Shown: one piece after another, positions 19,781-63,360 of the stretch
How the letters are laid out: every line of letters begins with the position of its first letter
Numbering within the stretch: the first letter of the stretch is position 1
DNA from: Terriglobia bacterium
Lineage (GTDB): Bacteria > Acidobacteriota > Terriglobia > 20CM-2-55-15
Direction of reading: 5' to 3'
Assembly: GCA_965263045.1 (NCBI GenBank)
Contig: CBDHGK010000005.1
Coordinates: 13,377-77,376 of the forward strand
Length of the DNA stretch: 64,000 bases
The notes under the pieces: generated by a model
What the model was told of the DNA's origin: nothing
Database searches by the model: none
What the model saw: only the letters and a program-made list of their open reading frames with translations
Made by a program: the position numbers and the translations under genes

Positions 19781-20362
19781 CTAAACGCATGGCATGGAAA
19801 CATGGGCAATTTTCCACTCACCATGTTCGAGCGCCCAAATGATAAAAATCACTGCGCCATATTCAAGTGGTAACAGGGAAAGGGACGCGTTTGGTGGCAA
19901 TAACTCCTTGAGGTACGCTCCATCTTCGACGTCGTCGAACCATTCATCGAAGCTCGCCTCAATTAGCAGGAACTTATCTTCTCTAAGATCATTAGTAGCC
20001 CGCTGTTGTAAAGCGGGAACAATCTCCGATCGGAATTGTGCCCCGGCCAAGTCCTGCTGTGAGAATTCCTCAAGGAAGTTCCGAATCCACAATTGCCTTG
20101 CTGTCTCGGATTGACGTTCTTCTTCGGAGATATAGCCGAGGCATGGCTCATTCAGCATCACACGATTGGCCATCGCGGTCTGTCCGAAGAACGAAAAGCC
20201 GCGGTCAGAACCCGGATCAACCAATGCTGACAGGAAGCTTCGTACCGCTTCTCCTAGATCCACTGACGCCCCGACCCCTTCCTGTTGCGTTTCGGAAGCG
20301 GCCAAGCAGCTCATTCCCACTCCAAGTCCGAGGCATACAATCAAACTATGCGAGAGGTTCAT
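19781..20362 (-). CDS. Hypothetical secreted protein, 193 aa
   Basis: Hydrophobic N-terminus; lies between the two Sel1 genes on the same strand. Confidence 0.6.
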   Translation of the reverse strand: MNLSHSLIVCLGLGVGMSCLAASETQQEGVGASVDLGEAVRSFLSALVDPGSDRGFSFFGQTAMANRVMLNEPCLGYISEEERQSETARQLWIRNFLEEFSQQDLAGAQFRSEIVPALQQRATNDLREDKFLLIEASFDEWFDDVEDGAYLKELLPPNASLSLLPLEYGAVIFIIWALEHGEWKIAHVSMPCV

Positions 20363-20431
20363 TGCCCTTAGTTCCTGTCCGCGCCGGCGATCCCACCTTT
20401 GACGCTCATCACGTAGGCGATTCTTTGCCCT

Positions 20432-21934
20432 TTACGGCTCGCAGTCCTGGTAGTCCGAGGCCATGCACGTCCGCGCCAGCTCCGTCGCACGGCTGATCTC
20501 GGCGCGGGTCATGTCACGTTCCAAATTGTCCCGCGACGTCCTGGCGGTTTCGTCTCCATTTGCACCAGCGATGTTGAACCACATGTGCGCTAGCACGGGA
20601 TCCTGGAGGACGCCGTCGGAGTACATGACACCGAGGTTGTGCTGCGCACGGGCGTTTCCCTGGTCGGCGGCAAGTCGATACCAGCGTACAGCTTCAGCGG
20701 CGTCCTTGAGAACGCCCACGCCGTTGGAGTAACTGACACCGAGGTTGTGCTGCGCACGGGCGTTTCCCTGGTCGGCGGCAAGTCGATACCAGCGTACAGC
20801 TTCAGCGGCGTCCTTGAGAACGCCCTCGCCGTTGGAGTAACTGACACCGAGGTTGTGCTGCGCACGGGCGTTTCCCTGGTCGGCGGCAAGTCGCATCCAG
20901 CGCACGGCTTCGGCATCGTTCTTGAGGACACCCTCGCCGTTGGAGTAACTGACACCGAGGTTGTACTGCGCGTCGGCGTTTCCCTGGTCGGCAGCAAGTC
21001 GCATCCAGCGCACGGCTTCGGCATCGTCCTGGAGAACGCCCTCGCCGTTGGAGTAACTGACACCGAGGTTGAACTGCGCGTTGGCATTTCCCTGGTCGGC
21101 GGCAAGCCGGTACCAGCGCACGGCTTCGGCATCGTCCTCGAGGATGCCTTCACCGTTGGAGTACATGCGCCCGAGGTTGTGCTGCGCACCGGCGTTTCCC
21201 TGGTCGGCGGCAAGCCGGTACCAGCGCACGGCTTCGGCATCGTCCTGGAGAACGCCCCGCCCGATGTCATACATGAACCCGAGGCTGGACTGCGCACGGG
21301 CGTCGCCCTGGTCGGCGGCAAGCCGGTACCAGCGCACGGCCTCGGCGGCTTCCCGCGGGACGCCGCCGCCGTTCTCGTACATGACCCCGAGAAGCCACTG
21401 CGCATCGACGTGGCCCTGCTCGGCCGCCAGCTGATACCAACGCACGGCTTCGGCAGCGTCTTGCGGTACGCCCTCCCCGTTGACGTACATGACCCCGAGG
21501 TTGAATTGAGCATCGGCGTCACCCTGTTCGGCGTCGGTCAGGAGACTGGGGCCCCTGAACGGGTTCCCTGATCGCGGGCTTTGCCCGGTGGCCGGAGGAA
21601 GCGCCTCGCGTAGCGCAGGTTCGGCGACGTTATCTGTGGCACGTTGAGACCCACTGGGACGCATGCGCCCAAGGAAGTCCTCCGCCTGGATGTGACCTTG
21701 GTCGGCAGCTAGGCGTAACCAGCGTGCAGCCTCCGCACGATCCTGGGGAACGCCAGTCCCCGTGGCGTACCGGTAGCCGAGGCTGTACTGCGCATCGGCG
21801 TCACCCTGCTCGGCGAGGCGGCGGATTTCAGTGATCTGGTCCGGGTCCTGCCCGAGCGCCCAAGGGGCGATTAGCGTCAACACCAGCACGGAGACGGTAA
21901 GTGTCGTAAGTATGCTTGTGGGCCGCCGTTCCAT
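20432..21934 (-). CDS. Secreted Sel1-like repeat protein (about 11 repeats), paralogue of 17896
   Basis: Same MERRPT signal and same ELARTCMASDYQDCEP C-terminus; 108-bp tandem units. Confidence 0.95.
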   Translation of the reverse strand: MERRPTSILTTLTVSVLVLTLIAPWALGQDPDQITEIRRLAEQGDADAQYSLGYRYATGTGVPQDRAEAARWLRLAADQGHIQAEDFLGRMRPSGSQRATDNVAEPALREALPPATGQSPRSGNPFRGPSLLTDAEQGDADAQFNLGVMYVNGEGVPQDAAEAVRWYQLAAEQGHVDAQWLLGVMYENGGGVPREAAEAVRWYRLAADQGDARAQSSLGFMYDIGRGVLQDDAEAVRWYRLAADQGNAGAQHNLGRMYSNGEGILEDDAEAVRWYRLAADQGNANAQFNLGVSYSNGEGVLQDDAEAVRWMRLAADQGNADAQYNLGVSYSNGEGVLKNDAEAVRWMRLAADQGNARAQHNLGVSYSNGEGVLKDAAEAVRWYRLAADQGNARAQHNLGVSYSNGVGVLKDAAEAVRWYRLAADQGNARAQHNLGVMYSDGVLQDPVLAHMWFNIAGANGDETARTSRDNLERDMTRAEISRATELARTCMASDYQDCEP

Positions 21935-41497: not shown

Positions 41498-41704
41498 TCA
41501 ACGGTGTCGTATGACAACGAGGCTGAATTGGGCATCGGCGTGTCCCTGTTCGGCAGCGAAGCGGAGCCACTTCACGGCTTCGGCCAGGTTTTCGGGTACG
41601 CCATCGCCTCTGGCGTATATGTCACCGAGGTTCAATTGGGCATCAACATTCCCCTGCTCGGGGAAGCGGCGCACGCAATCCGTTCGTTTCCATTGGTATC
41701 CCAA
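41498..41704 (-). pseudogene. Sel1-repeat remnant
   Basis: EQGNVDAQLNLGDIYARGDGVPENLAEAVKWLRFAAEQGHADAQFSL, with unrelated ends. Confidence 0.75.
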
Positions 41705-43302: not shown

Positions 43303-43635
43303 CTATTCCGAGTCTTCCCCGCCCTCCGGGCCGTAGAAGAACACCCAGACTGCAAGGTCGGAGGAAAACTCCTCAAAGCGGTGCGACTGGCCGGCGGCTA
43401 CAAAAAGGAAGGAACCCGGGCCGACCGGGTGGCGGTCGGCGCCATCGAAAAAGATGCCGTGGCCGCGAACGACGACGTAGATCTCATCGCGACTATGAGG
43501 TTTCTGGGGATCGTGATCCTTCGGCGTGTACAGCTCAGCCTCGAGCGATCCGTGGGAGAAGACCGGTACGGCCAGATTCCCGGCGGGCGGTGGCCCCATG
43601 GCCAGTACTTCGTCGGGATGTGTTGCAACTTTCAA
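43303..43635 (-). CDS. Cupin-domain protein (5' end lies in an IS6 terminus)
   Basis: PHSRDEIYVVVRG and HRFE cupin motifs. Confidence 0.8.
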   Translation of the reverse strand: MKVATHPDEVLAMGPPPAGNLAVPVFSHGSLEAELYTPKDHDPQKPHSRDEIYVVVRGHGIFFDGADRHPVGPGSFLFVAAGQSHRFEEFSSDLAVWVFFYGPEGGEDSE

Positions 43636-44140
43636 AAATCAGCAAGAGAGCGACTGGTTGGGTTGACTTGGCTCCGTCTCATGCGGCTACCTCGAAGAGC
43701 TTGTTGATGAACTGAATCTGTTGCCGAACATCCGAACCGCTCACCCACCTCGCCTGCCCCTTCCGGATCATGTGCATGGTCTCATATCCCTGGATCGTTC
43801 GCCGCGCCGCGTGGAATTCACGAAAGCCCTGCTTCGCCTTCACGCGTCGTTTGATCGCCCGATGATCCTGCTCCAGGATGTTGTTCAAGTATTGGACAGG
43901 TCGGTGGCGGCAACGGCGGCGCAGGATTCCTTCCTGCTTCACTCCTGAAATCGCAGAGCCGTAAAGGGGCGCCTGGTCCGTGTTGATGACGCGGGGCTGT
44001 CGATGCGACGGGTTCGCCAGCGCCTTGCGGAACAGGCGTTTAGCCGTAGCGGCATCGCGTAACCCGGAGAGCACAAAATCGATCGTGGCTCCGGTGGAAT
44101 CGATGGCGCGGTAGAGGTAGCACCAACGGCCCTGGACACG
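43616..44140 (-). mobile_element. IS6-family element, 3' half with terminal repeat
   Basis: GRWCYLYRAID..VINTD..YLNNILEQDHRAIKRR; end GGATGTGTTGCAACTTT at 43616. Confidence 0.9.
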
Positions 44141-44499: not shown

Positions 44500-44676
44500 G
44501 TCGAGGACGCGCGGAAGGATTATGGCGAACGGCGTTTACGGGTGCTGGGCCACATTGAGGGCCAGCTTCATGCGGCAGTGATCACGGCGCGGGGCGACGC
44601 CGTGCGCGTGATCAGCTTGCGGCGAGCGAACACGAGAGAGGAACGAGCGTATGAGAAAGAACGCCAGTCGCCCTGA
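44500..44676 (+). pseudogene. brnT: BrnT toxin, 5'-truncated
   Basis: EDARKDYGERR..G......VIT.RG...RVISLRRANTREERAY; N-terminal half missing. Confidence 0.8.
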
Positions 44677-44938
44677 CGTAGAGAATCCGGAATGGACCGC
44701 AGAAGAGATTCGCCAAGCACGGCCGTTGATGGACGTGTTGCCCAAGGAAACAGCGGAAGCCGTTCGCCGGTATCGAGGTCAGCGCGGTCCTCAGAAGAGC
44801 CCTACGAAGGAACTGGTCAGCCTGCGCGTCGACCGCGACGTCGTGGAGGCCTATCGCGCGACGGGCTCCGCCTGGCAGAAGCGAGCTAACGAGGCGTTGC
44901 GCGTGTACGCCAAGAAGAGCGGTTTGACTGAAGAATGA
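44651..44938 (+). CDS. brnA: BrnA antitoxin
   Basis: DVENPEWT..RGPQKSPTKELVSLRVDRDVVEAYRATGSAWQKRANEALR. Confidence 0.9.
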   Translation: MRKNASRPDVENPEWTAEEIRQARPLMDVLPKETAEAVRRYRGQRGPQKSPTKELVSLRVDRDVVEAYRATGSAWQKRANEALRVYAKKSGLTEE

Positions 44939-45864
44939 AACCTCCCGCGTCGGGGAACCATGGTGCCGGCGGGTGCTCGGTGGCCAAAGCCGAAATAGAG
45001 AGTCCCAGTATAGCTGGCACTTACATCATCGGGCTGTTCGATATACTCGGGCAGACGCACAAGCTCCGCGACCTACCAAGTTTCCTCGCCCCACCCGGAA
45101 CCCCCGCACGCGCCGAGGCGATCTCCGCCTTAAGCGAAGTGACCCGTGAGGTAGCTGACTTACGGTGGCTGTTCCGGCAGCAGTTCGAGGCTTTCGGCGC
45201 ATCTGTTGCTCGGATGGCCGCCACGTGCGGCCTGGAGGGTAATGAGATCGCACTGTTGGAGCCGAGTTTCAGGCAGTGGGGTATGTCCGACTCGTACGTC
45301 GTAGCCATTCCGCCGCCACGCCACGACGACGAGCGAGTCTCTCGGCTAGCCGATGTGTACCGCCTGCTGTCCGCAGCAGCGTGTACGTGGCTGCACGCCA
45401 TGAGAGTGAACCTGCCCATCCGAGGCGGGATAGAGTTGGGCCTCGCCGTGGCCATAGAGGAGAACGAGGTCTACGGCCACCCGCTGGCTGAGGCTCATCT
45501 GCTGGAGAGCACGGTCGCGCAGTATCCCAGGATAGTAGTCGGGCCGGAGCTCGTGACCTTGCTAAACAGCGCCTGGAGGATCGAGACCCAAGATGCAGGG
45601 CACTCGGCGTTGGCCAGTCTGTTCGCACAGGCGTCCCTGGCCCTCATTCAAAGGGACGAGGACGAGCGGCGGGTGGTTGATGTCACCAGCACAGTTGTAG
45701 TTGAGCACCTACGGGAAGCTATGCCCGATCTGCTGCCGGCCGTGATGCGGAATGTTGAGCAGCAGCTCAGGTGCCACGACGAAGCCGGATGCAAAAAGCT
45801 GGTGGAACGCTACCAGTGGCTGCAGCGCCGCCTAGCCGGGCTCGGTGACAGATATGGCCACTGA
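44935..45864 (+). CDS. Class III nucleotidyl-cyclase-like protein
   Basis: LFDILG, MSDSYVV, IRGGIELG, VYG..LAEAHLLES..YPRIVV. Confidence 0.7.
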   Translation: MKPPASGNHGAGGCSVAKAEIESPSIAGTYIIGLFDILGQTHKLRDLPSFLAPPGTPARAEAISALSEVTREVADLRWLFRQQFEAFGASVARMAATCGLEGNEIALLEPSFRQWGMSDSYVVAIPPPRHDDERVSRLADVYRLLSAAACTWLHAMRVNLPIRGGIELGLAVAIEENEVYGHPLAEAHLLESTVAQYPRIVVGPELVTLLNSAWRIETQDAGHSALASLFAQASLALIQRDEDERRVVDVTSTVVVEHLREAMPDLLPAVMRNVEQQLRCHDEAGCKKLVERYQWLQRRLAGLGDRYGH

Positions 45865-46325
45865 GGCATTCTCCGTACATCATTTGTAGCAGCATCGTCC
45901 AAGGTAGCGTGCGGCTCAGCGCCGGCCTGTGAGCAGGCCCGCACGCCAGAGGACGTACAGGAACGTCCTGCGCGGCGGTTCGGCTCTATGGTGCCTCTGT
46001 CGATCGTCGTTCGGTGACAACGGTGGGGGTGGCGATGGTGCCCCGCAGCGCTGATCAGCGCGTGGTCGTCTCTGCGGTCCACGATCTCAAGCCGTCCACA
46101 CACGGCCTTCAACGCCCGCGGACATCTTATTGCTAACGAGGGATCCGATGAGGGGAAGAGATTACATCTGAAGTTATAAAGTATTTATATGGAATGAGTT
46201 ACCTCGTATCTATGGCAGAGGCCCAGGCGGCTATCAGAAGCCGCCGCCCGCCGCTCGAACCTCAATTGGCTGCCGTTCTTGCAGCTTGGTTCATTCCGCA
46301 GCGCGACCACGGGCCACCCGTCCAG

Positions 46326-46649
46326 TCACGCTGGCGGTCTAACGGCCTTCTCCAGATACCGTGGGGCCGTCTCTCGGATGCGCAAGGCGTGGGAGAAGAT
46401 GTCCCTCACGTCGTCGACGTGCACACGCTCCTCCGACTTGTTCGCGTCGAAGAGCCCGAGCCGCTTTTGAGCCGTGTTGAAGTGCAGCCGGCAGATCGGT
46501 TGCCGGTTCGTATTGTCTAGGAGCCTGTCGGGAATTGGCTCCCTCGAAGCAAGAATCAACAACTTACGAGCCATCCCTGGTCTGTAAGTTGTTGATTCTT
46601 GCTTGCAGACTTCTTATTCCCGACAGGCTCCTAGCAGCACCGAGCAGTA
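46326..46649 (-). pseudogene. C-terminal remnant of a restriction-endonuclease-like (HsdR N-domain-type) protein, split by a MITE
   Basis: Removing the MITE restores YCSVLLDNTNRQPICRLHFNTAQKRLGLFD. Confidence 0.65.
46521..46630. mobile_element. 110-bp MITE with IS5-like ends and CTAG duplication
   Basis: CTAG-GAGCCTGTCGGGAAT...ATTCCCGACAGGCTC-CTAG; internal 20-bp inverted repeat AGCAAGAATCAACAACTTAC. Confidence 0.85.
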
Positions 46650-46651
46650 GG

Positions 46652-46746
46652 GGTTCTGGTGCAGATAGGATTGTCGGAGCGATAAGATCAGGAGTGCGCT
46701 ACGGCGATGCGGACTATGCTGCCATGACGTGCCGCCAGATCACCGC
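46652..46746 (-). mobile_element. Right-end remnant of the IS6 seen at 26644-27470
   Basis: Near-identical to the reverse complement of about 27375-27470. Confidence 0.85.
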
Positions 46747-46802
46747 CCCTCCTGTGCTTCATGAGAACCTAAAAGCTCCAAACTTCGCTACCGACGAGTG
46801 AT

Positions 46803-46951: not shown

Positions 46952-47938
46952 TTAGTCGCGGCGTAACGGTGACGAAGTGCGTACGAAGTGCGTAGGCCCA
47001 GTTCCTGAGGTGTACGGGTCTCGGAACCCCACCGGCGTTGGATAGACAACTTCACATTCCACAATGGTCGCGATGGCGACCGCAAAACCCACGGCACTAA
47101 GCTTCGATGCGGCAGGCACGACAATCAGTCTGTGGCTGTACTTGTACTTACTGAACACTTCTTCAAGGGCGTTCCTCGACTCCTCGACCGAAGCGGTAGA
47201 GACCGTGATTACTTGGTCTGCAGTATCGAAAGCGAACGCGTTCATTTCTCGGACGGCCTGGTGTCGCCAGCCGTTTTCGTTACCTGGAGGACGACCTTCC
47301 AACAAGACTAGTTTTGACGGTGTAAGTTCGTTAATCAGCGCGCGAATGAAGCGAGGTTCGAAGTTTGGAGATGCTACCAAGATCACTGGCTCTCCGCCCA
47401 TGGCGGCCAGTGTCAAGTCGGGCACTGCCGTGATGCCAAAGAGTCCCGTCGTAAGAAACACCTGACCTGTCTCCTGCCCTTTCCTAGAGTTTGAGTCAGC
47501 CAGCCACTCTGCTTTAGTCGGATGGTACACACTAGGTTCTGTGTATGCGATGACGGGAGGGTTGCGGACCCTCATGAGCCTTGTGACCAGTACGAGGGCA
47601 AGAAATTTCGACATCCCTGAAACATCGAGGACAATGGGCTGCTGTCCGTACGATGCTACCAATGCATCGGCGGTGAGCGCAGTCGATTCGAATGGATGAA
47701 ACCGATCGAACTTTGCCTCGGAGACTCCGGATCCGACGATTGTTGCCAAGTTCAGTGCTTCCTGAAGTCTGTTATTGCCATCGTGCGGCAGGTAATCCAC
47801 GATTACGACTCGGAGATATCGTTTGCCCCTATTGGCGCAATCTTTCAGGTATGCGACCGAGCGTTCTTCAAAGCCAGCGGCGACGAAAAGTACGGCATCG
47901 GTCGTTTCGTGGGGTTCTTCTGACAATAGTGCTGTCAC
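46952..47938 (-). CDS. Tandem Rossmann/CARF-like domain protein, 328 aa
   Basis: Two similar halves: AAGFEERS..LDVSGMSK..AYTEP and SPNFEPRF..VPAASKL..VYPTP; GTGA overlap with the upstream gene. Confidence 0.75.
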   Translation of the reverse strand: MTALLSEEPHETTDAVLFVAAGFEERSVAYLKDCANRGKRYLRVVIVDYLPHDGNNRLQEALNLATIVGSGVSEAKFDRFHPFESTALTADALVASYGQQPIVLDVSGMSKFLALVLVTRLMRVRNPPVIAYTEPSVYHPTKAEWLADSNSRKGQETGQVFLTTGLFGITAVPDLTLAAMGGEPVILVASPNFEPRFIRALINELTPSKLVLLEGRPPGNENGWRHQAVREMNAFAFDTADQVITVSTASVEESRNALEEVFSKYKYSHRLIVVPAASKLSAVGFAVAIATIVECEVVYPTPVGFRDPYTSGTGPTHFVRTSSPLRRD

Positions 47939-50409
47939 GTCTCTTCTTGATCTCGGAAATTTAGGCGCGGCACGTTAGCGTTCTTCTTCTCACGACGTTT
48001 CTTCAGGGCTTGGTTCTTAAAGCCCTCGGGATCGGACAAGAGGCGTTTGAACTCTCTTACCTCCATTCCCACGTTGTCGCGACGTGAGAAGGTCAGTCGA
48101 CAAATAGGGATGAGAAGCCTGCGCAAATATAATCTATCTACCGTAGCCGATCTCAAGCTACGTCCTGTTGAATCGCGAATGAACACTCCGTACCTGAGGA
48201 GTGCTTCATAAACCTGCTTTAGCTTTGCTTCCGAGTCATCGAATTCAAGTGCGTCCCTTAATTCGATGCGAAACGCCTGTTTCGGTGGGGTGCTCCCTTG
48301 GTTAGGGGAGTCTAGATTCATCAGCTCCCAATGCGCCACTTCGCCGAAGGAGTCTGCGATCTTTCGGATCAAAGGGCCATGACTGGGAGCCGCTTCTATA
48401 TTCGAAAGAAAGTCCGCTCCCAGCTTCATAATCGCGCGGTTCTGAATAGAGGCGTCAACAGGAAGATCCCGAGGCTTAGCGTCGGCGATCTTAGCGATCC
48501 CGCCTACTCCAGCTACTATGTCGCGGATCAACCGCAAGGTGTGCGTAATGTCCCCCGAGCACATATCAACGATGACGTCTAGGCCGCGATATTTTAGCTG
48601 CTGGGGTGATCGGAGCTGGCGAGCCATTTCATTGTAGGCGAGTTCACCGTCCCCGAGCAACACCTCCAGTGAAGGCAGCGATTGCCTCTTGACTGCGTGG
48701 AACCTGGTATTTACGACGTCCGAGATAAACTGTCTGCGGGAGTCCGCTTCAGCAGTCATGAAGGATGCACCAAGATCCATCACCGAATACTCGCGATCCG
48801 GTTCGAGCAATTTCCCCGATGAATCATGCGGATGGAGGCTTGTAATATGCTCCGTGGCAACCTTAAAGAACACGGTGTCCCACCGCTGAAATATCGCCCG
48901 GTTCAAACTCGCCTGAAGTTGCTCGGATACTCTCGGCGTAGAGTAATCATCTAGGAATACGAATGATGAGAGTCCTTCTAGCCACGGCACAGCATTTGTG
49001 AATGCTGCTAACATCTCGGGAACAAAATCCAAACCCAAGGCGGGCACGTCCATGACGGAGCCACGCTGCATCGCCAGTTTGGTCGTGAGACGAGCAGAAT
49101 CTACTTGTGCGCGTATGTCAGCAAGGGATGTAGGATTCTTTTCGCGATTTCGAATGTTGGGCAACCGCGATACCGTCCACGACACGATGTTACGCACAAC
49201 TGGACTCTTGAGTTCAACTTCTGTCTGCGACATCGCAATCTGGTCGATGCTCGTTAGCGTCTCGGCAAGTAACGACAGGTTGAAGTAGTGCAGTGTGCCT
49301 TCGAGAAAGTGCCGATCGACTTCGGACGTGCTTGAATACGGAAAGGCGTAAAAGAGGTCGGTGCAGTGATAGTAGATTCCGAATAAATTCAATTCGCTCG
49401 CTTCTTCCGCTCCACCCAATACCCGGGACTTGGAAGCCAAGCTCCTCAATAACATAGTCTTGCCGCATCCACGAGGGCCGGTGAGTACGGTATTGCCTTT
49501 CTCAAGAAAGTCAGGAGCGTTCGGAAAGTTCATCTTGAGAAGACTTTGCAAGAGGACGTGTTGCTGTCCCATCTGCTCGCAACTCATGTAATCGAACGGG
49601 TCGTCCAGATTCGCCGATCTCTGGGATCGAGTCGGCGGTTGTCTCAGGCACTCGCGGAATCCTGTCAGGAGGCCTTGAGCGTTTCGGTAAAGTGGATTCG
49701 ATGGGTTTCCTTCTCGCAGGCGTGGAATAAGCCATTCCTCCATTTGGTCACATTCGAAACGCCCAGATCCGCTTGCCGTGTTCCTGCGCGCAACTGGTGT
49801 AAGGGATTGCAACACTTCGCCGACTGATACGTAGTCATCTTTCGGGGTAAGAGAGTTTAGTGAATTTCCTATGCCAAAGTCAGTCAGCCAAAACTCTTCC
49901 ATAGGTTCTACACGGTCGTCGCCGGGAACTTCTATGAGGATATTCCGGTCATGGATGTCTCCATGGCTGATATGGCGTGCCTCCAGGGCGAACAGGAGCG
50001 ACAATAGCTCTTCTCCTATTCGCACACAGAAGCTATTGGTGACCGACTGAGGGAACAACTCGACGTACTGTCTAAGGTCGTAGCCTTCTATCCATGGCAT
50101 TACGATAAAAACATAAGATGCTGTCTCCCCTGGGAGTGTAATTGTCTGGACTCGTTCAGGCCGAACGACCTTTATAGATTGCGCGAGCAGGTGGGGCTTT
50201 CTTATCTCCTCGTGCCAACCGGCTCTGACGTTTGCATGCGGTATGACCTTGACCGCCACCGGCCTTCCGTGGCCCGCAATGGTCTGCGTGGCTCTATACA
50301 CGAGCCCGTTCTTTCCGCCGCGAAAGAACCCATCGAGCTTGATGCCGGGTTCAAGCGTGTAGCCTTCAAATAGCTCGGGTTTCGGTAGATTTCGTGTAGC
50401 CACGATCAA
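47935..50409 (-). CDS. Ser/Thr kinase fused to P-loop ATPase (ORC/CDC6- or STAND-like)
   Basis: Kinase motifs GGKNGLVY, VAVKVI, HGDIHDRNILI, TDFG; Walker A GPRGCGKT; Walker B VFLDDY. Confidence 0.9.
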   Translation of the reverse strand: MIVATRNLPKPELFEGYTLEPGIKLDGFFRGGKNGLVYRATQTIAGHGRPVAVKVIPHANVRAGWHEEIRKPHLLAQSIKVVRPERVQTITLPGETASYVFIVMPWIEGYDLRQYVELFPQSVTNSFCVRIGEELLSLLFALEARHISHGDIHDRNILIEVPGDDRVEPMEEFWLTDFGIGNSLNSLTPKDDYVSVGEVLQSLTPVARRNTASGSGRFECDQMEEWLIPRLREGNPSNPLYRNAQGLLTGFRECLRQPPTRSQRSANLDDPFDYMSCEQMGQQHVLLQSLLKMNFPNAPDFLEKGNTVLTGPRGCGKTMLLRSLASKSRVLGGAEEASELNLFGIYYHCTDLFYAFPYSSTSEVDRHFLEGTLHYFNLSLLAETLTSIDQIAMSQTEVELKSPVVRNIVSWTVSRLPNIRNREKNPTSLADIRAQVDSARLTTKLAMQRGSVMDVPALGLDFVPEMLAAFTNAVPWLEGLSSFVFLDDYSTPRVSEQLQASLNRAIFQRWDTVFFKVATEHITSLHPHDSSGKLLEPDREYSVMDLGASFMTAEADSRRQFISDVVNTRFHAVKRQSLPSLEVLLGDGELAYNEMARQLRSPQQLKYRGLDVIVDMCSGDITHTLRLIRDIVAGVGGIAKIADAKPRDLPVDASIQNRAIMKLGADFLSNIEAAPSHGPLIRKIADSFGEVAHWELMNLDSPNQGSTPPKQAFRIELRDALEFDDSEAKLKQVYEALLRYGVFIRDSTGRSLRSATVDRLYLRRLLIPICRLTFSRRDNVGMEVREFKRLLSDPEGFKNQALKKRREKKNANVPRLNFRDQEET

Positions 50410-51515
50410 CCTCTTCTGAAAACCAAGACGGTTTCCCGTTTCGTGCCACGCAGGTCTCGCCGGGATCTCCGGATATCTGGGATAACATCGTCGATCCGCT
50501 CCACCAATTTAAATTGCCGAAGTGAAGTTGAAGTAAAGACCTCAGTCAGAATACCGGCTGTATCCGTACGCGTTCCTGAGCGTGTCGCCTCCCCTACGAC
50601 AAAGATGAATGAACTCCCCATCTGCATGCCGCGGGACAGTCGAACGCACACCGCAGTCATGAGGTTCGCGTACCGCTCCACATTGGGACCGCGCAAAGAG
50701 TCTGCAGCCCCGCTGAGCGATCGCAGTAGTAGCCATATCCGGAGGCGGTTATCCCTTACGTAGTCAAGTTCATTCATATATGGCGGACTGGTTACTACCG
50801 AATTGACTACGGGTGGCAGCGGGATCTGGGTTGCGTCGCACATATGGACTCGAATCCGAGGAGCATTTGGAAACCGTGGTCTTCGGTATAGCCGACGGAC
50901 TTTCGCTTCCATTCTCGGAAGGACGTCTCTACGCTCATATAGGCTCGGAAATTCTTCTCGCGGAAATCTTTTATTCCGAAGGTATGGGACGAGGTGGCTG
51001 CTTGGAAAAGAAAGGAAGCCTGGTCGCTGATGATGCAGAATACTCAGGAGGCAAGCCATGAGAAAATAGTCACGCTGTTGAACGCACTCGTCACGGAGAG
51101 CGAGCACATCCCTAAGCGTTTCCGAGTGAAAGAACGACCGCACCCAAGAAGGCACTTGCCTAAGATCTTGATGGCTGCGACGGGCCATCGCACTTTCCCA
51201 GCGCCGTCCGAGCCGACGGAGAGCTGCGTCTTCCGATCTAGGCGCAAAGAGCTTCGCCCGAGTGAGAGTAATACCATAAGGATTGATATCGCTTGCAGCA
51301 ACGCTCCGACCTCTGATCGCAGCCTCGAACGGCACAACTCCGGATCCCGCAAACGGATCAACGACCATCCCACCCGGGTCTGTGTACTGCTCAATCAAGT
51401 ACTGGGCGATGGTAGTCTTCATTCGACCAATGTAAGGAGCGATCTGCTGGAAGGTACTGTCGGTTCTTGTCGTTGCCTCTTTGGACCATGGGATCGCAGC
51501 GACCTTTTCAGTCAT
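50406..51515 (-). CDS. DNA amino-methyltransferase (SPPY type, probably N4-cytosine)
   Basis: PYIGRM, motif I VVDPFAGSG, DINPY, motif IV TSPPY; GGAAGG RBS before ATG at 51515. Confidence 0.9.
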   Translation of the reverse strand: MTEKVAAIPWSKEATTRTDSTFQQIAPYIGRMKTTIAQYLIEQYTDPGGMVVDPFAGSGVVPFEAAIRGRSVAASDINPYGITLTRAKLFAPRSEDAALRRLGRRWESAMARRSHQDLRQVPSWVRSFFHSETLRDVLALRDECVQQRDYFLMACLLSILHHQRPGFLSFPSSHLVPYLRNKRFPREEFPSLYERRDVLPRMEAKVRRLYRRPRFPNAPRIRVHMCDATQIPLPPVVNSVVTSPPYMNELDYVRDNRLRIWLLLRSLSGAADSLRGPNVERYANLMTAVCVRLSRGMQMGSSFIFVVGEATRSGTRTDTAGILTEVFTSTSLRQFKLVERIDDVIPDIRRSRRDLRGTKRETVLVFRRG

Positions 51516-51630
51516 TGTCCGCCTTCCAAGGAAACCTATCTGAGACCTGTCGATGAGGAGACACTCCCGCTGGGATCGACAGCCTTCACAACGACCGCAA
51601 GGTACACACGTTGATCCAGCAGATCGTTCG

Positions 51631-51900
51631 TGTAAGTCCTCAGTGGTCACTTCAAAACCGGCCAACGGGGATGGCCCGGGACGGTGTTGTTCTACCTCTT
51701 TTGGACCGGACTCGGCAAGCCCGTTTTAGTCCTCCAACTCCGAGGGCCGCATTTGAGGATGTGGCCGTGATGGAGCAGCCGGTCCAGCATCGCGGTAACA
51801 GCAGCGCTGTCGCCGAGTAGTTTTCCCCAATCTTCGACCGGCCGATTCGATGTCAGTAGCGTACTGGTCCGTTCATAGCGTCGCATCACGATCTGAAGGA
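51631..51900 (-). mobile_element. istB: IS21-family remnant: istB 3' end and terminus
   Basis: RRYERTSTLLTSNRPVEDWG..AMLDRLLHH; end TGTAAGTCCTCAGTGGTCACTTCAAAACCGGCCA. Confidence 0.85.
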
Positions 51901-52299: not shown

Positions 52300-52480
52300 C
52301 TAGTAGAGGGATTCGTCGTGGTCGCTGTCGTTGGTGGCGACAAGGCGGCGCTGGCGCGGGAGATGCATGGCTGGGTCGTGCATCAGGCGTTTGATCTTCA
52401 TGTGCTTCATGATCCAGCCGCGATCCCTCAGCGCCGCATGCATGCGGCACCAGCCATAGGCGGCGGGATCGCTTCGATTA
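52300..52480 (-). pseudogene. Degenerate IS3-family OrfB fragment
   Basis: AYGWCRMHAALRDRGW..RRLVATNDSDHD. Confidence 0.65.
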
Positions 52481-52603
52481 CTTATTGGGCGCTGGCAATG
52501 GGGATAGTCCAAGTTCCTTCAGAAACACGTTGTGCTTGGCCGTTGACTCCCGAATCTGCTTCTCGATTTCGACCAACTCCTTGGGCGTGGCCGACAGATC
52601 GAT
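52478..52603 (-). pseudogene. hsdM: Type I RM methyltransferase (HsdM) C-terminal remnant
   Basis: IDLSAT.KELVEIEKQIRESTAKHNVFLKELGLSPLP matches the typical HsdM tail. Confidence 0.6.
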
Positions 52604-52966
52604 CGTGGCTCCGGTGGAATCGATGGCGCGGTAGAGGTAGCACCAACGGCCCTTGACACGAACGTAGGTCTCATCCACACGCCAGGACTTATTGGTTGGC
52701 TTGAGATGACGGCGCAAGCGCTCCTCCAGTTCCGGACCGTAGCGCTGGACCCAGCGCCAGATTGTCGTGTGGTCCGCTTCCAGGCCGCGCTCGTTGAGCA
52801 GCTCTTCGACATCGCGGAACGAGAGTGAGTGCCGTAGGTGCCAGCGCACAGCGCAAAGAATCAGCTCGGGCTCGGTTTGTCGCCACTTGAAGATCGCCGG
52901 TCGGATTGTCTTTTTCATGGTCTCTTCAGGTTACCAGGCACCGTCGGCCAAAGTTGCAACACAACC
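52598..52966 (-). mobile_element. IS6-family element, 5' half with terminal repeat
   Basis: FKWRQTEPELILCAVRW..WRVDETYVRVKGRWCYLYRAID; end GGTTGTGTTGCAACTTT at 52966. Confidence 0.9.
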
Positions 52967-53029
52967 CCTCTAAGTCATTAATTCCTAGTCTCGGCTTCAG
53001 CAGATTCCGCCCACAAACCGGGCGAATTC

Positions 53030-55979: not shown

Positions 55980-57113
55980 TTGCCTATTACGTTTATCCAC
56001 ACAGCCGACTGGCAGTTGGGTAAGCCCTTTGGATCAATTGGGGGCGACACAGCAGCCCTCCTTCGTGAAGAGCGCTTCGAAACAGTAAAGCGCATTGCGT
56101 CGCTGGCAACTACGCGTGCAGTGGACGCTGTCCTTGTTGCCGGCGATGTATTCGACAGCGTCACGGTGCCGGAACAGATCGTTCGGCGGGCACTAGAGGC
56201 AATGAAGGCCTTCGCTGGCCCGTGGGTCTTGCTTCCAGGCAATCATGACCCCGGGATCTCTGAGAGTCCCTGGACGCGGATCGAGCGCATTGGGCGGCCT
56301 GACAACGTTATCTGCGCCCTCGCACCCGATCCGGTTCTGCTCGCTGACGGAAAGCTCGCTATTCTGCCTGCGCCGCTTACGCGGAAGCATGAGGCGGATG
56401 ATGTCACACAGTGGATGGACACAGCTGGAACTCCACCTGACTCGATCCGAGTCGGGCTAGCTCATGGTTCTATCTCCAATCGGCTTCCCGAAGGCGACGA
56501 TCAGAACCTCATTTCCGACGACCGCGCTGAGACGGCTACTCTCGACTACCTCGCACTTGGCGATTGGCACGGCACCGTAGAGATCGCTCCCAAAACCTGG
56601 TACAGCGGAACACCTGAGCCCGACCGGTTTCCAAGGAACGAGCCAGGAAATGTGCTTGTTGTCACGATCGACGGCAGGGGCGCTACTCCAGGCGTTGAAA
56701 AGGTTGCCGTCGGCCGCTTCCAATGGCGTAGTTGCAAGGTCGAGTGCGGGGTCAGCGGCGAGGAAGATCCAGCGTTGGGTATTGAGGGCGTCATCGGGAG
56801 TGTTGCGGATCGCCCGACCGATATGCTTGTCCACCTTACTGTGTCAGGTACCGTGGACCTCGCCGGTCGCCGACGGATAGACATTTGCCTCGACACTTGG
56901 CAGGCTAGGCTCAGGTATCTCCACCGCGATCTCGATGAACTTGTCGACGAGCCCAGCCCCGATGACCTGGATATGATTGACCGCAGTGGTTTCGTTCGCG
57001 CCGCCGTTGATCGGCTCAAGTCCAAAGCTGACAATCCAGCCGATCCAGAGAGGGACGTTGCCCGAACGGCCCTGAGACTCCTTTACATTGTGCACGTCGA
57101 GGCAGGGAACTGA
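55980..57113 (+). CDS. Mre11/SbcD-like metallophosphoesterase nuclease
   Basis: HTADWQLG, VAGDVFD, LPGNHD, AHG, ALGDWH, YSGTPE. Confidence 0.95.
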   Translation: MPITFIHTADWQLGKPFGSIGGDTAALLREERFETVKRIASLATTRAVDAVLVAGDVFDSVTVPEQIVRRALEAMKAFAGPWVLLPGNHDPGISESPWTRIERIGRPDNVICALAPDPVLLADGKLAILPAPLTRKHEADDVTQWMDTAGTPPDSIRVGLAHGSISNRLPEGDDQNLISDDRAETATLDYLALGDWHGTVEIAPKTWYSGTPEPDRFPRNEPGNVLVVTIDGRGATPGVEKVAVGRFQWRSCKVECGVSGEEDPALGIEGVIGSVADRPTDMLVHLTVSGTVDLAGRRRIDICLDTWQARLRYLHRDLDELVDEPSPDDLDMIDRSGFVRAAVDRLKSKADNPADPERDVARTALRLLYIVHVEAGN

Positions 57114-57116
57114 GGC

Positions 57117-59792
57117 ATGCAGATCCGGAGCATCGAGATCGCGGCCTTTCGATGCTTTAGGGACCGCATCCTAATCGACAACATCGATGATGGGATTACC
57201 CTGCTGGTTGGCGACAACGAAGAGGGGAAGTCGACCGTGCTTGCTGCACTGCAGACGGTCCTTTTTGAGAAACACACTGTCGGCGGGACCGTAGCCGCCG
57301 CCATGCTCCCATATAGCTCGAAGGTGCGGCCCGAAATTACTCTCCAGTTCGACCACGACGGTGTCCATTATCGTCTTTCGAAAGCCTTTTGCCAAAAGCC
57401 GATAGCTGAGCTCGAAGCTGAAACGGGAACTCGCTGGACCGGGGATGCCGCAGAAGACCAGCTTCGGGACATGCTGGAATTCACACCCCCGCCCAGGGGC
57501 GGGGCAAAGCCCGAACACCGTGGCCTCCAAACCTTGTTCTGGGTCGAACAAGGTTTGGCGTTTGCACAACCACAAATCAACGACACGTCCCATATCAGTC
57601 TTGCTGGAGCGCTGGAAGCCGAGATTGGAACCGTTACCGGCGGGGAGCGGGGCCGGACGCTTATCAAGCGTGTTGAAAGTCGAGTGAGCGAGATGTTCAC
57701 TCCAAAGACCAGGAAGCCGACTGGAGAGTACAAGGGTGCCATCGACCGGGCGACAAAGGCCCTTGCTCACCGCAATGAAATCGCCGACAGACTCAAGAAC
57801 TTCGAAGACAAGGTCGCTACATTAACGGAGGCGCGCCAACGCCTCGCCCAACTCGAGGTGGACGATCCCGTCGGTACCGCAGAGAAGCGTCTCACCGCAG
57901 CCCAGGAGGCTGTCCGCAATATCGAAGGCTTTGAAAGCCAGTTGCAAACAGCCGAAGCGCAACTCAAGACCACCCAATCGGAGTACGAACTGGCAAAGAC
58001 GCGGTTGGAGCGGCGACAGGAGAGCCGCAAGGAAGTCGAGCACGCAGATCTAACATTAGTGGAACGCAGAGCGGCAGAGTTGCAAGCCAAGGAGGCTGTC
58101 AACGACGCCCAGACGACTCACAACAAAGCAGCCGCCGCACATCAAGAGGCGAAAGTGGCCTTGGATAGCAAAAGAGAATTGACGGCAGCCGCCCGTCGAT
58201 TGGCGGATTCGATTCGCAAGAGCGAGGAACTCGTCGCAACGCAGGAACGCTTTAAGAAAGCGCAAGCCGCCGATGAGGTTGCAACCACCCTGATGGCGAA
58301 AGCTAAAGCGAGTGCTTTCACATCGACGGCTCTCGAGGAGCTACGGCGCATTGAGATCGAAGCTCGCGAGGAACGCGTCCGACTTAACGTTATCGCCACG
58401 CTACTCGAACTCACTCCTGACGAAGGCAGGAGTGCCACGATTCAGGGTAAAGCGATCGAGTCGGATGCACTCACACTTACCGAGCCAACCGACATTGATC
58501 TCAACGGATATGGAACGATCCGGGTAATACCCGGCGGTGAAGACCTGTTGATCCGCCGCGATGCGGCGGCTACCGCAGCATCAAAGCTGCAGCTCGCACT
58601 GGATAGCTATGACATAGCCAGCGTCCAGGTCGCAGCCGCACACGCCAACGACCGTGAGACATGGCTCAACGAAGCGGCTATACATGGCACGATAGCTGAG
58701 GCCCATGCGCCTGAAGGTCTGGATGAGCTACGCAACCATGTTGCGACCCTCCAGGCGGCAGTCGATAGCTTCCTGGAAGACGTCAATGTGGCAGATATTC
58801 GCAGAATGACGTCAGTTGAAGCGACTCACCGGGCCAACGAACTGGGGCGTACACTCAGCGAAGTGGAGGTGGTTGAACGTTCCGCGTCAGACACTCTAAA
58901 GGATGCGGAGGGGGCGCTGAAAGAGGCGAAGCATTCGCTTGCAGCCATAACTGTTCAACGAGAGACTGCGGAGAATCAGTCCAATGATCTTCGCCAAGCG
59001 CTTGACAAGGCCGTGGCCGAATATACGGACGACCAATTAGTGCAAGAGCTCCGTAAATCGACGGACTCCCAACAGGCCGCTCAGGAAGCGGTCGATGGGT
59101 TGAAGAAGGCACTCTCGGAGAGCGATCCTACCGGAACTCGTCGGGAGTTAGAGGCTGCGAAGGCGGCTCGTATCAATGTCGAGGCGAATCTCCGTGAAAA
59201 AAGCCGTCAAGTCGATGGCCTGACAATAGAACTTCGCACACTTGGGAAGGACGACGCGGCCGGTGAAATGGAGATAGCAGAGGGTGAGCTTGTACGTGCC
59301 GAAAACCTGAAGGGGAGGCTGAGTCATCAGGCAGACGCGCTCGCCCTTCTCTTGGACACTCTTCTGGAAGAAGAGGAAATCGCACGCGAGACGTTCCTTG
59401 CCCCCGTTAGCGATCGCGTCCAACCCTATCTCAAACGCCTGCTCCCGAATGCTGCGCTCCTGCTGGACGATCAGACACTTCGAATCACTCATCTGCGCCG
59501 TGAAGGTATGGACGAACCCTACGAGCGCCTCAGTATCGGCACGCGGGAGCAACTCGCTGTGTTGGCTAGGTTGGCGTTTGCAGACTTGCTGTATCAGTAC
59601 GGTAAGAAATCACCAATCATTCTTGATGATGCGCTGGTGTTCTCAGACGACCAAAGGTTTGAAGCGATGCAGCGCATTCTTGATGGCGCGGCCGAGAGGT
59701 TGCAGATCATAGTGCTGACATGCCATGAACGTGCCTACTTCGATCGTGGCTGGACGACGAAAAGGGTTCAGGTTTCCCAAGGGCGAGTTTGA
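57117..59792 (+). CDS. Rad50/SbcC/YhaN-like SMC-type ATPase
   Basis: Walker A GDNEEGKST, long coiled coil, LSIGTREQ signature, Walker B IILDDALV, LTCH. Confidence 0.9.
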   Translation: MQIRSIEIAAFRCFRDRILIDNIDDGITLLVGDNEEGKSTVLAALQTVLFEKHTVGGTVAAAMLPYSSKVRPEITLQFDHDGVHYRLSKAFCQKPIAELEAETGTRWTGDAAEDQLRDMLEFTPPPRGGAKPEHRGLQTLFWVEQGLAFAQPQINDTSHISLAGALEAEIGTVTGGERGRTLIKRVESRVSEMFTPKTRKPTGEYKGAIDRATKALAHRNEIADRLKNFEDKVATLTEARQRLAQLEVDDPVGTAEKRLTAAQEAVRNIEGFESQLQTAEAQLKTTQSEYELAKTRLERRQESRKEVEHADLTLVERRAAELQAKEAVNDAQTTHNKAAAAHQEAKVALDSKRELTAAARRLADSIRKSEELVATQERFKKAQAADEVATTLMAKAKASAFTSTALEELRRIEIEAREERVRLNVIATLLELTPDEGRSATIQGKAIESDALTLTEPTDIDLNGYGTIRVIPGGEDLLIRRDAAATAASKLQLALDSYDIASVQVAAAHANDRETWLNEAAIHGTIAEAHAPEGLDELRNHVATLQAAVDSFLEDVNVADIRRMTSVEATHRANELGRTLSEVEVVERSASDTLKDAEGALKEAKHSLAAITVQRETAENQSNDLRQALDKAVAEYTDDQLVQELRKSTDSQQAAQEAVDGLKKALSESDPTGTRRELEAAKAARINVEANLREKSRQVDGLTIELRTLGKDDAAGEMEIAEGELVRAENLKGRLSHQADALALLLDTLLEEEEIARETFLAPVSDRVQPYLKRLLPNAALLLDDQTLRITHLRREGMDEPYERLSIGTREQLAVLARLAFADLLYQYGKKSPIILDDALVFSDDQRFEAMQRILDGAAERLQIIVLTCHERAYFDRGWTTKRVQVSQGRV

Positions 59793-60770
<978 letters not shown>

Positions 60771-60786
60771 GTTAATCGATTCTGCA

Positions 60787-63360
60787 ATGGCGATAAGCGA
60801 CCGCGTTCGGATCTCATTGTGGCGCTGGGGCTCAATTCTTGCCATGGCGGTCATCGGGGCCATTGTTTTCGAAGTCTCGTTGCCCGTTGGTTGGTACTAC
60901 GTGAGCTCCCTGCCCGACCCCCTGGACTGGTACTCCGGCTGGTTCGTGTGTGTCACCATCTTGGCAACACTGCTTTTCTTGGCGTTTCTAGTTGCTGAGC
61001 CGATTCGGTTCCGTCCGCAACAGATTCCTGGCCTACTCCACTACCCTCCGTTCTGGTTCTCGGTTGTGCTTGGCCTCGTGTTCGCTCTGGTGTTCGATAC
61101 CCTACTGCCACCGTTGCAAGCAGCGGTCGTCCCATCGTGGAGGCAGCTTGATGTCCTTATTCCCCTCGCGATTGTTGCTGTCATTGCAGTCGGGATTCGA
61201 GCACTACCGGGGAGTCGGCCTGCCCGACCTGAGGCGGATCCTGATCTCCCCACTACGCTTACGTGGCATGTAATTCAAGAGTGGTCTCGTCGAGAGGGCC
61301 CCCTAACAACGGGTCCGGACCTGCTTGCTCATGAACCAATCGTCGAGCGGATTCGTGATGGGATCACGCTCCATGAAGAAAGAGCAATCGCCTTGGTCGG
61401 CCCTGTCGGTAGTGGGAAGACGAGCATCCTTAACATGCTGAGGCAGACGCTCCTCCGAAGTAAAGGAGACCGACCGCTGGTTATCGCCGAGGTCAATTGT
61501 TGGGCGATGCCCCGCTCCCAGGATGCCCCGCGCGTGGCGCTGGAACGCGCTATCAGCGCTCTAGACGACTTTGTCGACACGCTGGCGCTCAGAAGACTCC
61601 CGGATGCCTACCAGCAAATCTTGTCCGCCGAACCAACGGGCACCATCGCCAAACTGTTCAGTATCGGCCGCATGAGAGACGCGGCAGAGCAACTCAGCGA
61701 CCTGACACCACTGCTGGAGGTTATAGATGCCAGACTCCTCCTTATTATCGAAGACGCTGAGAGGGCGGGGCAGGCCTTCGAAACAAGGCATCTGGAACGC
61801 CTCCTGTGGGCACTCCGCGACGTCGACCGCGTGTCCTTCATTCTGTCGTTCGACCCGGAGCGTGCAAGCTTTGACTACAGTAAGTTGTGCGACAACATCG
61901 AACGGGTGCCACGAATCACCGCCGCTCGGGTAGAAGACATCCTCGCGCGAGCCTATGCACATTGGCAAACAGTAACCGAAGGCTACATCGATCCTCTTCC
62001 GGAACAGCGAACAGATCGACTCGGGCTCTCGAATGTCACCGACCCTCTTAACCGCTACATGCGACGCAAGGACGGCAACAGCGTTGCCCAAGCCATAGCC
62101 GATCTGTTGACTTCGCCGCGCAACCTCAAGCATTTTGTGCGCAACGTTGACCGAGCATGGGAAGTATTGCGAGGAGAAGTAGAACTCGATGACCTGATCG
62201 TCCTCACCGCGTTGCGTCACGGAGCCCCCGAAGCATTCGACTTTATAGTCGTCAATGCCGAGTCGGCCAGATCCGAGACCCCTAGGGACGACCCCATCGA
62301 TGGCACAGCGGTAAAGACAGTGAGGGCTCGCTGGGACATCCTACGTGACTCATTGACGACACCACCCACGGTACAAATGCTTGTCGACGCGCTCGAGCTA
62401 CCGCAGTTGGCGGGTGAAACTCTATTCGCCCAATCCTTGCCACAGGGCATTCATAACGATGGGCCCGTTGACTACCTAGGTCGGATACTGGCTGGACGAA
62501 TCCCTCCCGGAGAGATTCGGGATCAGGAAGTCCTCAAGGACATCGAGAGTTGGAAGAGTTCCGGCTCCGCACAAATGCTGAAGAAACTCGTAGCGTCTAC
62601 CCAAGAGGCGGACCAGTATGTTGACATCTGGGAGCACTACGACCGCCATCTTTCTGATGATCAATTAATCGAGATAGCTACCGGACTGATTGCCGACGCG
62701 CTGAACCGCTTCAAAGCCAATGCATCAATAAATCACCCTGCGATGCACGCCGTATGGCGGAGATGCAACCGTCGCCTTCGGCGCGATACGAAGACGGATT
62801 GGCTCATCGATCAGATTCGAATCGTGCTGCCTATCAGTCTCGGCTTCGCCACCGACCTGTTTTACTTCTGGGCGTCGACTGAGACCGGCAGCGTCTCTGT
62901 GGGGGAACGAAACCGGGTTCGAATTGCATTAGTCGAAGAGACTCGTACATCATTTGTCACTGTTGACGCGCTTCTTTCATCCCTCGGCCCAGAACATGAG
63001 TGTCCCCTGACACGACTGCTCTATCCGCCTCCGCTGCACGAACCGCCGGACCCCATACCGCGGGACAGCTGGGAATGGCTCGTTCCGCTCATCATCGAAG
63101 CTGGCAAGGCAGATGAAGACCAAATTGTTCCTGACGTGGCCATCCTCGTCGGGGACACGGCTGCTGGCGTTAGGACGGGTCAATTCGACCGACGCTATGA
63201 ACTGGAGCGCGATCGAATGTCCGAGTTCTTCGGGGATCAAACCCGTGTGATGCTGGGTATCCTTGCGGAGTACAGCGGCAGTCATGAGCATGCAGTGGCT
63301 GCCAGAGAGGATGCGAAAAAGTGGATTGCCGAAGGGCTCGGAGAGTCAGGCGACCAATAA
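60787..63360 (+). CDS. KAP-family P-loop NTPase with N-terminal transmembrane segments
   Basis: About four TM helices, Walker A GPVGSGKTS, Walker B LIIEDAER, SPRNLKHF sensor motif. Confidence 0.85.
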   Translation: MAISDRVRISLWRWGSILAMAVIGAIVFEVSLPVGWYYVSSLPDPLDWYSGWFVCVTILATLLFLAFLVAEPIRFRPQQIPGLLHYPPFWFSVVLGLVFALVFDTLLPPLQAAVVPSWRQLDVLIPLAIVAVIAVGIRALPGSRPARPEADPDLPTTLTWHVIQEWSRREGPLTTGPDLLAHEPIVERIRDGITLHEERAIALVGPVGSGKTSILNMLRQTLLRSKGDRPLVIAEVNCWAMPRSQDAPRVALERAISALDDFVDTLALRRLPDAYQQILSAEPTGTIAKLFSIGRMRDAAEQLSDLTPLLEVIDARLLLIIEDAERAGQAFETRHLERLLWALRDVDRVSFILSFDPERASFDYSKLCDNIERVPRITAARVEDILARAYAHWQTVTEGYIDPLPEQRTDRLGLSNVTDPLNRYMRRKDGNSVAQAIADLLTSPRNLKHFVRNVDRAWEVLRGEVELDDLIVLTALRHGAPEAFDFIVVNAESARSETPRDDPIDGTAVKTVRARWDILRDSLTTPPTVQMLVDALELPQLAGETLFAQSLPQGIHNDGPVDYLGRILAGRIPPGEIRDQEVLKDIESWKSSGSAQMLKKLVASTQEADQYVDIWEHYDRHLSDDQLIEIATGLIADALNRFKANASINHPAMHAVWRRCNRRLRRDTKTDWLIDQIRIVLPISLGFATDLFYFWASTETGSVSVGERNRVRIALVEETRTSFVTVDALLSSLGPEHECPLTRLLYPPPLHEPPDPIPRDSWEWLVPLIIEAGKADEDQIVPDVAILVGDTAAGVRTGQFDRRYELERDRMSEFFGDQTRVMLGILAEYSGSHEHAVAAREDAKKWIAEGLGESGDQ

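Follow-up and report, generated by a model that had tools for sequence, protein, structure and literature searches.

What does a pair of CARF domains sense, and what does it control, in a locus that offers neither a recognizable effector domain nor CRISPR? The question is raised by a 64,000-nucleotide stretch of DNA (hereafter the window) from a Terriglobia bacterium of the Acidobacteriota (NCBI GenBank assembly GCA_965263045.1, contig CBDHGK010000005.1, positions 13,377 to 77,376 of the forward strand). On its minus strand, an open reading frame (ORF) with a GTG start codon at 46952..47938 codes for a stand-alone tandem-CARF protein of 328 amino acids (P0001) and is the last gene of a cassette that also codes for a DNA methyltransferase and a protein kinase fused to an AAA+ ATPase. 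What is known of CARF and SAVED sensors comes almost entirely from type III CRISPR and CBASS, in which a dedicated cyclase provides the signal and a nuclease- or protease-type domain executes the response. Structure prediction and comparative sequence analysis point instead to P0001 being two CARF domains of the catalogued clade CARF6 that form a pseudo-dimer within one chain. The protein would sense the ligand for a defence cassette that is linked to methylation, has no nuclease and acts through phosphorylation; we consider this combined reading probable.

The original prediction had been prompted by two pairs of short CARF-like motifs, LDVSGMSK and AYTEP in the first half of the protein and VPAASKL and VYPTP in the second. 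All four are present, at residues 104-111, 131-135, 274-280 and 298-302, respectively, and occupy conserved positions. Close relatives are few: a word-index search returned only eight close clusters (33-98% identical, all about 330 amino acids long). A profile search, conducted on 1.84 billion representatives of clusters at 50% identity, yielded 906 clusters at E <= 0.001, nearly all of about 350 amino acids; 126 of them form the alignment (A2) from which the conservation counts were taken. Conserved motifs are distributed over both lobes of the protein. Lobe 1 (approximately residues 14-175; 47414..47899, minus strand) is the better conserved half and contains G22-F-E-x-R26, Y49/N56, D105-x-S-x-x-S-K111 and Y132-x-E134..Y138-x-P140, while lobe 2 (approximately residues 183-323; 46970..47392, minus strand) contains F193, W224-R225, P275-x-x-S278-K279 and Y299-P300.

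The CARF signature [DN]x[ST]xxx[RK] was reportedly defined by Makarova and colleagues in 2014 as lying directly after strand beta-4. In lobe 1, the segment D-V-S-G-M-S-K (codons 105-111; 47606..47626, minus strand), which follows beta-4, fits this signature exactly, and its form in the family is D-[IV]-S-[GA]-M-S-[RK]. The counterpart loop of lobe 2, P-A-A-S-K (codons 275-279; 47102..47116, minus strand; family consensus P-T-G-S-K), retains only P-x-x-S278-K279 of it. Three residues, D105, W224 and K279, are invariant (126/126). Ser or Thr occupies position 107 in all 126 sequences and position 110 in 124, Arg or Lys is found at position 111 in 119, and Y132 and E134 are kept in 121 and 116, respectively. 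The corresponding numbers in lobe 2 are 116 for P275, 117 for S278, 121 for Y299 and 115 for P300. Conservation in at least 90% of the sequences extends in lobe 1 to G22, F23, E24, R26, Y49, N56, S107, S110, Y132, E134, Y138 and P140, and in lobe 2 to R225, P275, S278, Y299 and P300, such that 13 positions reach this level in lobe 1 versus 7 in lobe 2. Because the motifs recur at these positions across the homologues, they are real features of the protein family, judged by the alignment, and far from chance strings.

When P0001 was folded from its single sequence the model was poor (pLDDT 39.5), and with the 126-sequence alignment it reached a pLDDT of 93.4 and a pTM of 0.92. The model consists of two successive beta-alpha-beta units with their elements in the same order, and each of the quoted motifs comes after the corresponding strand of its own lobe, either beta-4 or beta-5. 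In structural comparison the highest score, 13.0, was obtained with Can1 (6SCE), over 240 aligned residues (14-305 of the model). The single CARF domains of Can2, Card1, Cam1, VC1899 and Csa3 followed with scores of 10.0-11.1, together with the single-chain Csm6 of Actinomyces (score about 10, about 243 residues aligned). The SAVED domains of CalpL, Cap4, Cap5 and the viral SAVED ring nuclease scored 8-9 over about 190 residues across both lobes, and the first unrelated fold, a flavohaemoglobin reductase domain, appeared at rank 22 with 8.1. Some single CARF domains align to lobe 2 (183/184-305/323; Cam1, Can2 7bdv_B and TtCsm6) and others to lobe 1 (Can2 8bao_B, Card1 and Csa3), whereas the CARF pair of Can1, single-chain Csm6 and SAVED each align to both lobes together. 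The predicted fold is thus of the Rossmann-like alpha/beta type, with a parallel sheet, and its nearest known structures are CARF domains, including the Csa3 and Csm6 domains with which comparison had been proposed; the joint alignment to Can1 is in keeping with the single-chain pseudo-dimer that the original prediction had put forward.

The correspondence of the two halves, which that prediction also assumed, is seen at the sequence level as well. Profile-profile comparison of half against half is collinear over 141 columns (P 5.5e-4) and pairs GFE[DE]R with SFN, Y-x-P..NR with PP..WR, D-I-S-x-M-S-K with P-T-G-S-K, and Y-T-E-A with Y-P-T-P; the signal is weaker if the profiles are built from nine close sequences only. 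Neither outcome named beforehand as refuting the prediction, a fold that is not CARF/Rossmann-like or halves that fail to superimpose, was thus seen, the second being judged by indirect comparison. These results bear on the most sceptical alternative, namely that the resemblance is a generic Rossmann-like one, such as would be shared by a tandem universal stress protein (USP) or another nucleotide-binding fold. Foldseek E-values do place KCC C-terminal domains and tandem USP near the top, and the Pfam CARF models remain below threshold. Tandem USP scores only about 6 in the structural comparison, and we regard this explanation as very improbable indeed.

Assignment to a clade came from PADLOC-DB, where P0001 gives a full-length match to 'CARF6--CARF_CARF_CARF' (PDLC01917; E 1.5e-12, residues 10-303). 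All 126 homologues match this model, 103 of them also match the fused model 'CARF6--CARF_STK_AAA', and a few match Csa3, CasR, CARF3 or CARF4 profiles. Both P0001 and its kinase-ATPase partner (P0002) match family profiles of the CARF6 clade (PDLC01910-01925). The search of P0001 against Pfam gave Csa3_N alone, below threshold, and searches against NCBIfam, PHROGs and PDB sequence profiles gave nothing usable; no NCBIfam or Pfam model exists for the CARF pair. Consistent with the claim that the protein has no effector domain, its 328 residues leave no room for one. Like P0001, Can1 of Thermus thermophilus, a cA4-activated DNA nickase, bears two CARF domains per chain (13% sequence identity). 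Unlike Can1, which is associated with type III CRISPR, P0001 has no nuclease, inserted domain or CRISPR link. Its structural scores against the SAVED domains (those of Cap4, Cap5, CalpL, TIR-SAVED and the viral SAVED ring nuclease) are lower than those against true CARF domains, and P0001 lacks a SAVED Pfam match, an effector fusion and an adjacent CD-NTase, so that it does not belong among the SAVED proteins.

Longer, fused relatives of P0001 were absent from the word-index search, and the profile search revealed a few. In some relatives, namely a Methanoperedens locus (L014, 9881-12010) and a further protein (P0080), the CARF pair continues at its C-terminal end into a calcineurin-like metallophosphoesterase (PF00149, 1e-13; no match in a PDB sequence search), and the fusion sits inside the same methylase / kinase-ATPase / CARF cassette. 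This module may be a nuclease or other effector, may counteract the kinase as a protein phosphatase, or may degrade the ligand as a phosphodiesterase. Another protein (P0122, 670 amino acids) contains an N-terminal tandem CARF followed by HisKA and HATPase_c; it may represent a CARF-regulated histidine kinase or else a gene-call fusion. The copy described here is 24-31% identical to those of the other related loci and, on its sequence, is an intact, plasmid-borne, split-gene member of a divergent subfamily.

Directly upstream of the CARF gene lies the gene for P0002 (47935..50409, minus strand; 824 amino acids), a predicted Ser/Thr protein kinase (approximately residues 30-190) fused to an ORC/Cdc6-like AAA+ ATPase (approximately residues 299-824). 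Pfam assigns the two parts to Pkinase (4.6e-08) and ORC-CDC6-like (PF24389, 1.1e-42), and by language-model features the C-terminal 235 residues also belong to the ORC-CDC6-like family. The defence profiles nearest to the kinase are PD-T4-6 and MAD6. Among 15 orthologues the invariant residues include, in the kinase, K54, the helix-C E68, the catalytic loop H149-x-D151-x-H-x-x-N156 and D177-F-G, and, in the ATPase, the Walker A motif G311-P-R313-G-C-G-K317, with an Arg inside the P-loop, and Walker B D487-D488. Since these catalytic motifs do not vary, both activities appear to have been selected to persist.

The first cassette gene (50406..51515, minus strand) codes for a putative DNA methyltransferase in which motif I reads DPFAGSG and motif IV reads SPPY (Pfam N6_N4_Mtase 6.4e-08 and D12 class 1.5e-05; PADLOC MTase_II 2.4e-19). 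In all 16 methylase sequences aligned, DPFAGSG is followed by SPPY about 190 residues on. The reading frame is open to 51665 (419 codons), and M51 (51515) is the likelier start because sequence conservation begins near residue 60. The upstream extension (51516-51665, minus strand) encodes a Cys-rich stretch, CxxCxxCxxC...C, which was considered as a Zn ribbon and rejected, being unconserved in the 15 orthologues and probably untranslated. The methylase stop overlaps the start of the kinase-ATPase gene by 4 nucleotides (TTGA), and the stop of the latter overlaps the P0001 start by a further 4 (GTGA); such overlaps at both junctions suggest translational coupling of the three genes.

A fused version of this architecture has been described: Makarova et al. 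(2014; PMC4012209) reported a family that combines a Zn ribbon, an S/T/Y kinase, an AAA+ ATPase with an Arg in its P-loop, CARF and wHTH. P0002 shares this P-loop Arg (Walker A GPRGCGKT), which does not vary among the 15 orthologues. That family, however, is fused in one polypeptide, whereas in the present cassette it is split and the CARF pair forms a gene of its own; the N-terminal Zn ribbon of the described family is likewise missing from P0002, whose N-terminus has no Cys cluster. No mention of an obligatory methylase was found in the text of that paper. P0002 matches the PADLOC model 'CARF6--CARF_STK_AAA' with an E-value of 3e-28 at positions 333-760 of its 1187, and residues 14-144 of P0001 are weakly placed (E 0.035) at positions 890-1001, so that the domain order of the fused profile equals the gene order found here. 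By these features, the cassette is a split form of the same kinase-AAA+-CARF module. Earlier computational work and PADLOC had already established the fold assignment, the CARF6 clade and the link to the kinase-ATPase. Our literature search found no experimental study of the cassette and no mention of CARF6 or of the trio; the 2020 CARF census, from which the CARF6 name presumably stems, lay outside this search.

The distribution of the cassette was assessed by a scan for related loci, with one genome per species (alignment A1), which returned 21 loci. The kinase-ATPase gene is directly upstream of the CARF gene in all of them, and the methylase gene is upstream of the kinase-ATPase gene in each of the 15 loci whose DNA reaches far enough. 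Clustering of all flanking ORFs of the 21 loci revealed no fourth gene common to them beyond close relatives, and the pairwise identities of the three cassette proteins correlate (r 0.95-0.98). The constant order, the lack of a fourth conserved gene and the correlated identities indicate that the trio moves and diverges as one unit. Its carriers include archaea (Methanoperedens, ANME-2, Methanoregula, Methanophagales, Thermoplasmatales and Natrinema) and bacteria (Cloacimonadota, Victivallales, Opitutaceae, Myxococcota, Rhodothermales, Geobacteraceae and several Proteobacteria). On the Bradyrhizobium quebecense plasmid NZ_CP088025.1 (locus L029, 69538-75559) the gene order is the same, with kinase and ATPase probably as two genes; a restriction endonuclease gene precedes the cassette, thyX follows it, and all of its genes except the methylase are annotated as 'hypothetical' in RefSeq.

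An alternative is a non-immune module, engaged in epigenetic or regulatory signalling, for example in the control of replication or of mobile-element maintenance, in which the CARF pair would detect a metabolic nucleotide. The cassette indeed has no nuclease, its ATPase resembles ORC/Cdc6, the replication-initiator type, the contig is plasmid-like with ParA and conjugation genes, and thyX is adjacent in some relatives. We nevertheless hold this alternative to be decidedly improbable. The cassette is patchily distributed and horizontally transferred over bacteria and archaea, the flanks of the other loci include six integrases, Gabija, a type III methylase, AbiEii-like ATPases, AriA and restriction-modification genes, and the kinase profiles nearest to P0002 are, as noted above, those of defence proteins. 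Taken together, the cassette is probably a CRISPR-independent anti-virus system.

Independence from CRISPR, which the original prediction had noted for the locus itself, can be extended to the carrier genomes. No CRISPR array was found in the 64-kb window, and the host genome (98.6% complete) has no Csm1 or Cmr2 match above the cut-off; Cas1 is present elsewhere in it. Cas10 above the cut-off is missing from all six carrier genomes searched (the present one and five others), and no cas genes are conserved with the cassette across the 21 loci. In contrast to the type III CRISPR-associated members of its superfamily, the P0001 cassette therefore shows no such association; with no Cas10 above the cut-off in the carriers, the ligand would not come from type III CRISPR, on which the cassette cannot depend. 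Association with CRISPR-cas is not obligatory for the CARF superfamily (PMC4012209).

A cyclase-like candidate near the cassette is a 309-amino-acid ORF about 1 kb away (44935-45864, plus strand), which begins where the gene of a BrnA antitoxin (44651-44938, plus strand; PF14384, 2.2e-20) ends. It falls in unnamed clusters, and the nearest named Atlas cluster, adenylate/guanylate cyclase (Guanylate_cyc), is a weak lead at only 0.86. This ORF was rejected as the ligand source, as it has no Pfam match at E up to 1 and is absent from all 21 related loci.

Could the protein act on a signal rather than respond to it? As an effector-less CARF/SAVED protein it might be a ring nuclease or sponge, which degrades or sequesters a cyclic oligonucleotide to switch signalling off, or to counter defence on behalf of the mobile element that carries it. 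Its linkage speaks otherwise, in that the CARF gene was never found apart from the kinase-ATPase gene or, where the DNA extends that far, from the methylase gene, and a fused kinase-ATPase-CARF form exists. Moreover, a substrate is not evident (the carriers lack Cas10, and the present genome also has no SMODS cyclase match), and no copy of the cassette was found in phage records. A ring nuclease or sponge is thus quite unlikely in our estimate.

In the sensor reading that we prefer, the two unequal lobes of P0001, the first better conserved than the second, would bind one nucleotide-derived, probably asymmetric ligand in the cleft between them. Binding would switch the kinase-ATPase partner on or off, the ORC/Cdc6-like ATPase may engage DNA, and the methylase may mark DNA as self. 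The output would be protein phosphorylation and not DNA cutting, providing nuclease-free immunity against phages or plasmids by analogy with BREX/Pgl. The ligand could originate from the phage, from host stress or from the cassette itself. More tentatively, it is possible, if doubtful, that the cassette represents a CRISPR-independent CARF pathway that senses a nucleotide other than a Cas10 or CD-NTase product, for example one that is phage-derived or made by the kinase-ATPase, and that licenses a kinase/ORC-like ATPase which discriminates unmethylated DNA.

Several observations weigh against an immune sensor. The clustering of flanking ORFs revealed no enzyme that would generate a signal and is kept alongside the cassette, in agreement with the earlier remark that the operon has no evident ligand source; SMODS occurs above the cut-off in only three of the five other carriers, away from the cassette. 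In addition, the correlated divergence of linked genes denotes co-inheritance, not interaction, and some of the flanks consist of housekeeping genes, which renders the defence-island context suggestive only.

The missing signal generator is also what would be expected if the CARF fold had been kept and small-ligand sensing lost, the protein then being a structural adaptor, a nucleic-acid-binding subunit or a phospho-acceptor of the kinase. Phosphorylation could take place on S107, S110 and S278, the conserved Ser residues of the two signature loops. In CARF and Rossmann-like folds the loops after strands 1, 4 and 5 line the ligand cleft, and in the model the conserved residues of P0001 cluster at these loops of each lobe, including the exact CARF signature and the invariant Trp and Lys. 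Conservation so placed fits a retained binding pocket better than a scaffold. BREX does employ an inactive Rossmann-type subunit, BrxB (PMC12839542), to which P0001 shows a very weak match (E 0.056). We consider the loss of sensing unlikely and retain the sensor as the preferred reading.

Comparison with known nuclease-free systems supports a likeness of working only. BREX type 2, or Pgl, combines a methylase, a protein kinase and an ORC/Cdc6-type ATPase with no evident restriction nuclease (PMC12839542), and its PglX methylase, PglW kinase, PglY ATPase of the ORC/Cdc6 clade and PglZ phosphatase offer an analogy for how the present cassette might operate. The cassette, however, lacks PglZ, BrxA/B and BrxD/H, its methylase is a small SPPY enzyme and not PglX, and its tandem CARF has no BREX counterpart; the PglZ, PglX and BrxC/PglY profiles have no match in the three cassette proteins. 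With MADS, the cassette shares the MAD6 match of its kinase; membership was rejected, as the MAD3/4 and MAD7/8 nuclease modules are missing.

The immediate surroundings of the cassette bear marks of mobility. A 26-nucleotide inverted repeat (85%; 43607-43632 / 52950-52975) that forms IS6-type ends brackets approximately 9.3 kb that include the cassette, and a 63-nucleotide direct repeat (98%; 44078-44140 / 52598-52660) also brackets it. A DDE_Tnp_IS240 transposase fragment (52478-52918) and ParA adjoin the cassette, and repeats and fragment are consistent with a split IS6 element. About 320 nucleotides downstream of the CARF gene, an inverted repeat with 51-nucleotide arms (84% complementary) and a 16-nucleotide spacer (46517-46634) overlaps two small unannotated plus-strand ORFs (46194-46520 and 46535-46801), neither of which has a Pfam match. 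Farther away, a plus-strand segment (55980-63360) may be another defence module. In it, a metallophosphoesterase (55980-57113) forms an SbcCD-like pair with an SMC/AAA_15-like ATPase (57117-59792), after which come an rve-family transposase (59829-60740) and then a KAP/AAA_22 NTPase (60589-63360). Long tandem-repeat arrays with a 108-nucleotide (36-codon) unit, together with two more copies of the 44-nucleotide core 20 kb away from them (18080-21473 and 41510-41661), are probably repeat-protein coding sequence.

The present copy adds little to its family beyond one more intact, plasmid-borne, IS-flanked example. The family itself is of broader interest, as it presents a conserved CARF pair with no cyclase, CRISPR or nuclease, always tied to a kinase, an ORC-like ATPase and a methylase. 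Should the more tentative pathway proposed above be correct, it would constitute a mechanistically new nuclease-free immune system spread over bacteria and archaea. The identity of the ligand would reveal what CARF domains sense outside CRISPR, and whether phosphorylation can be their output.
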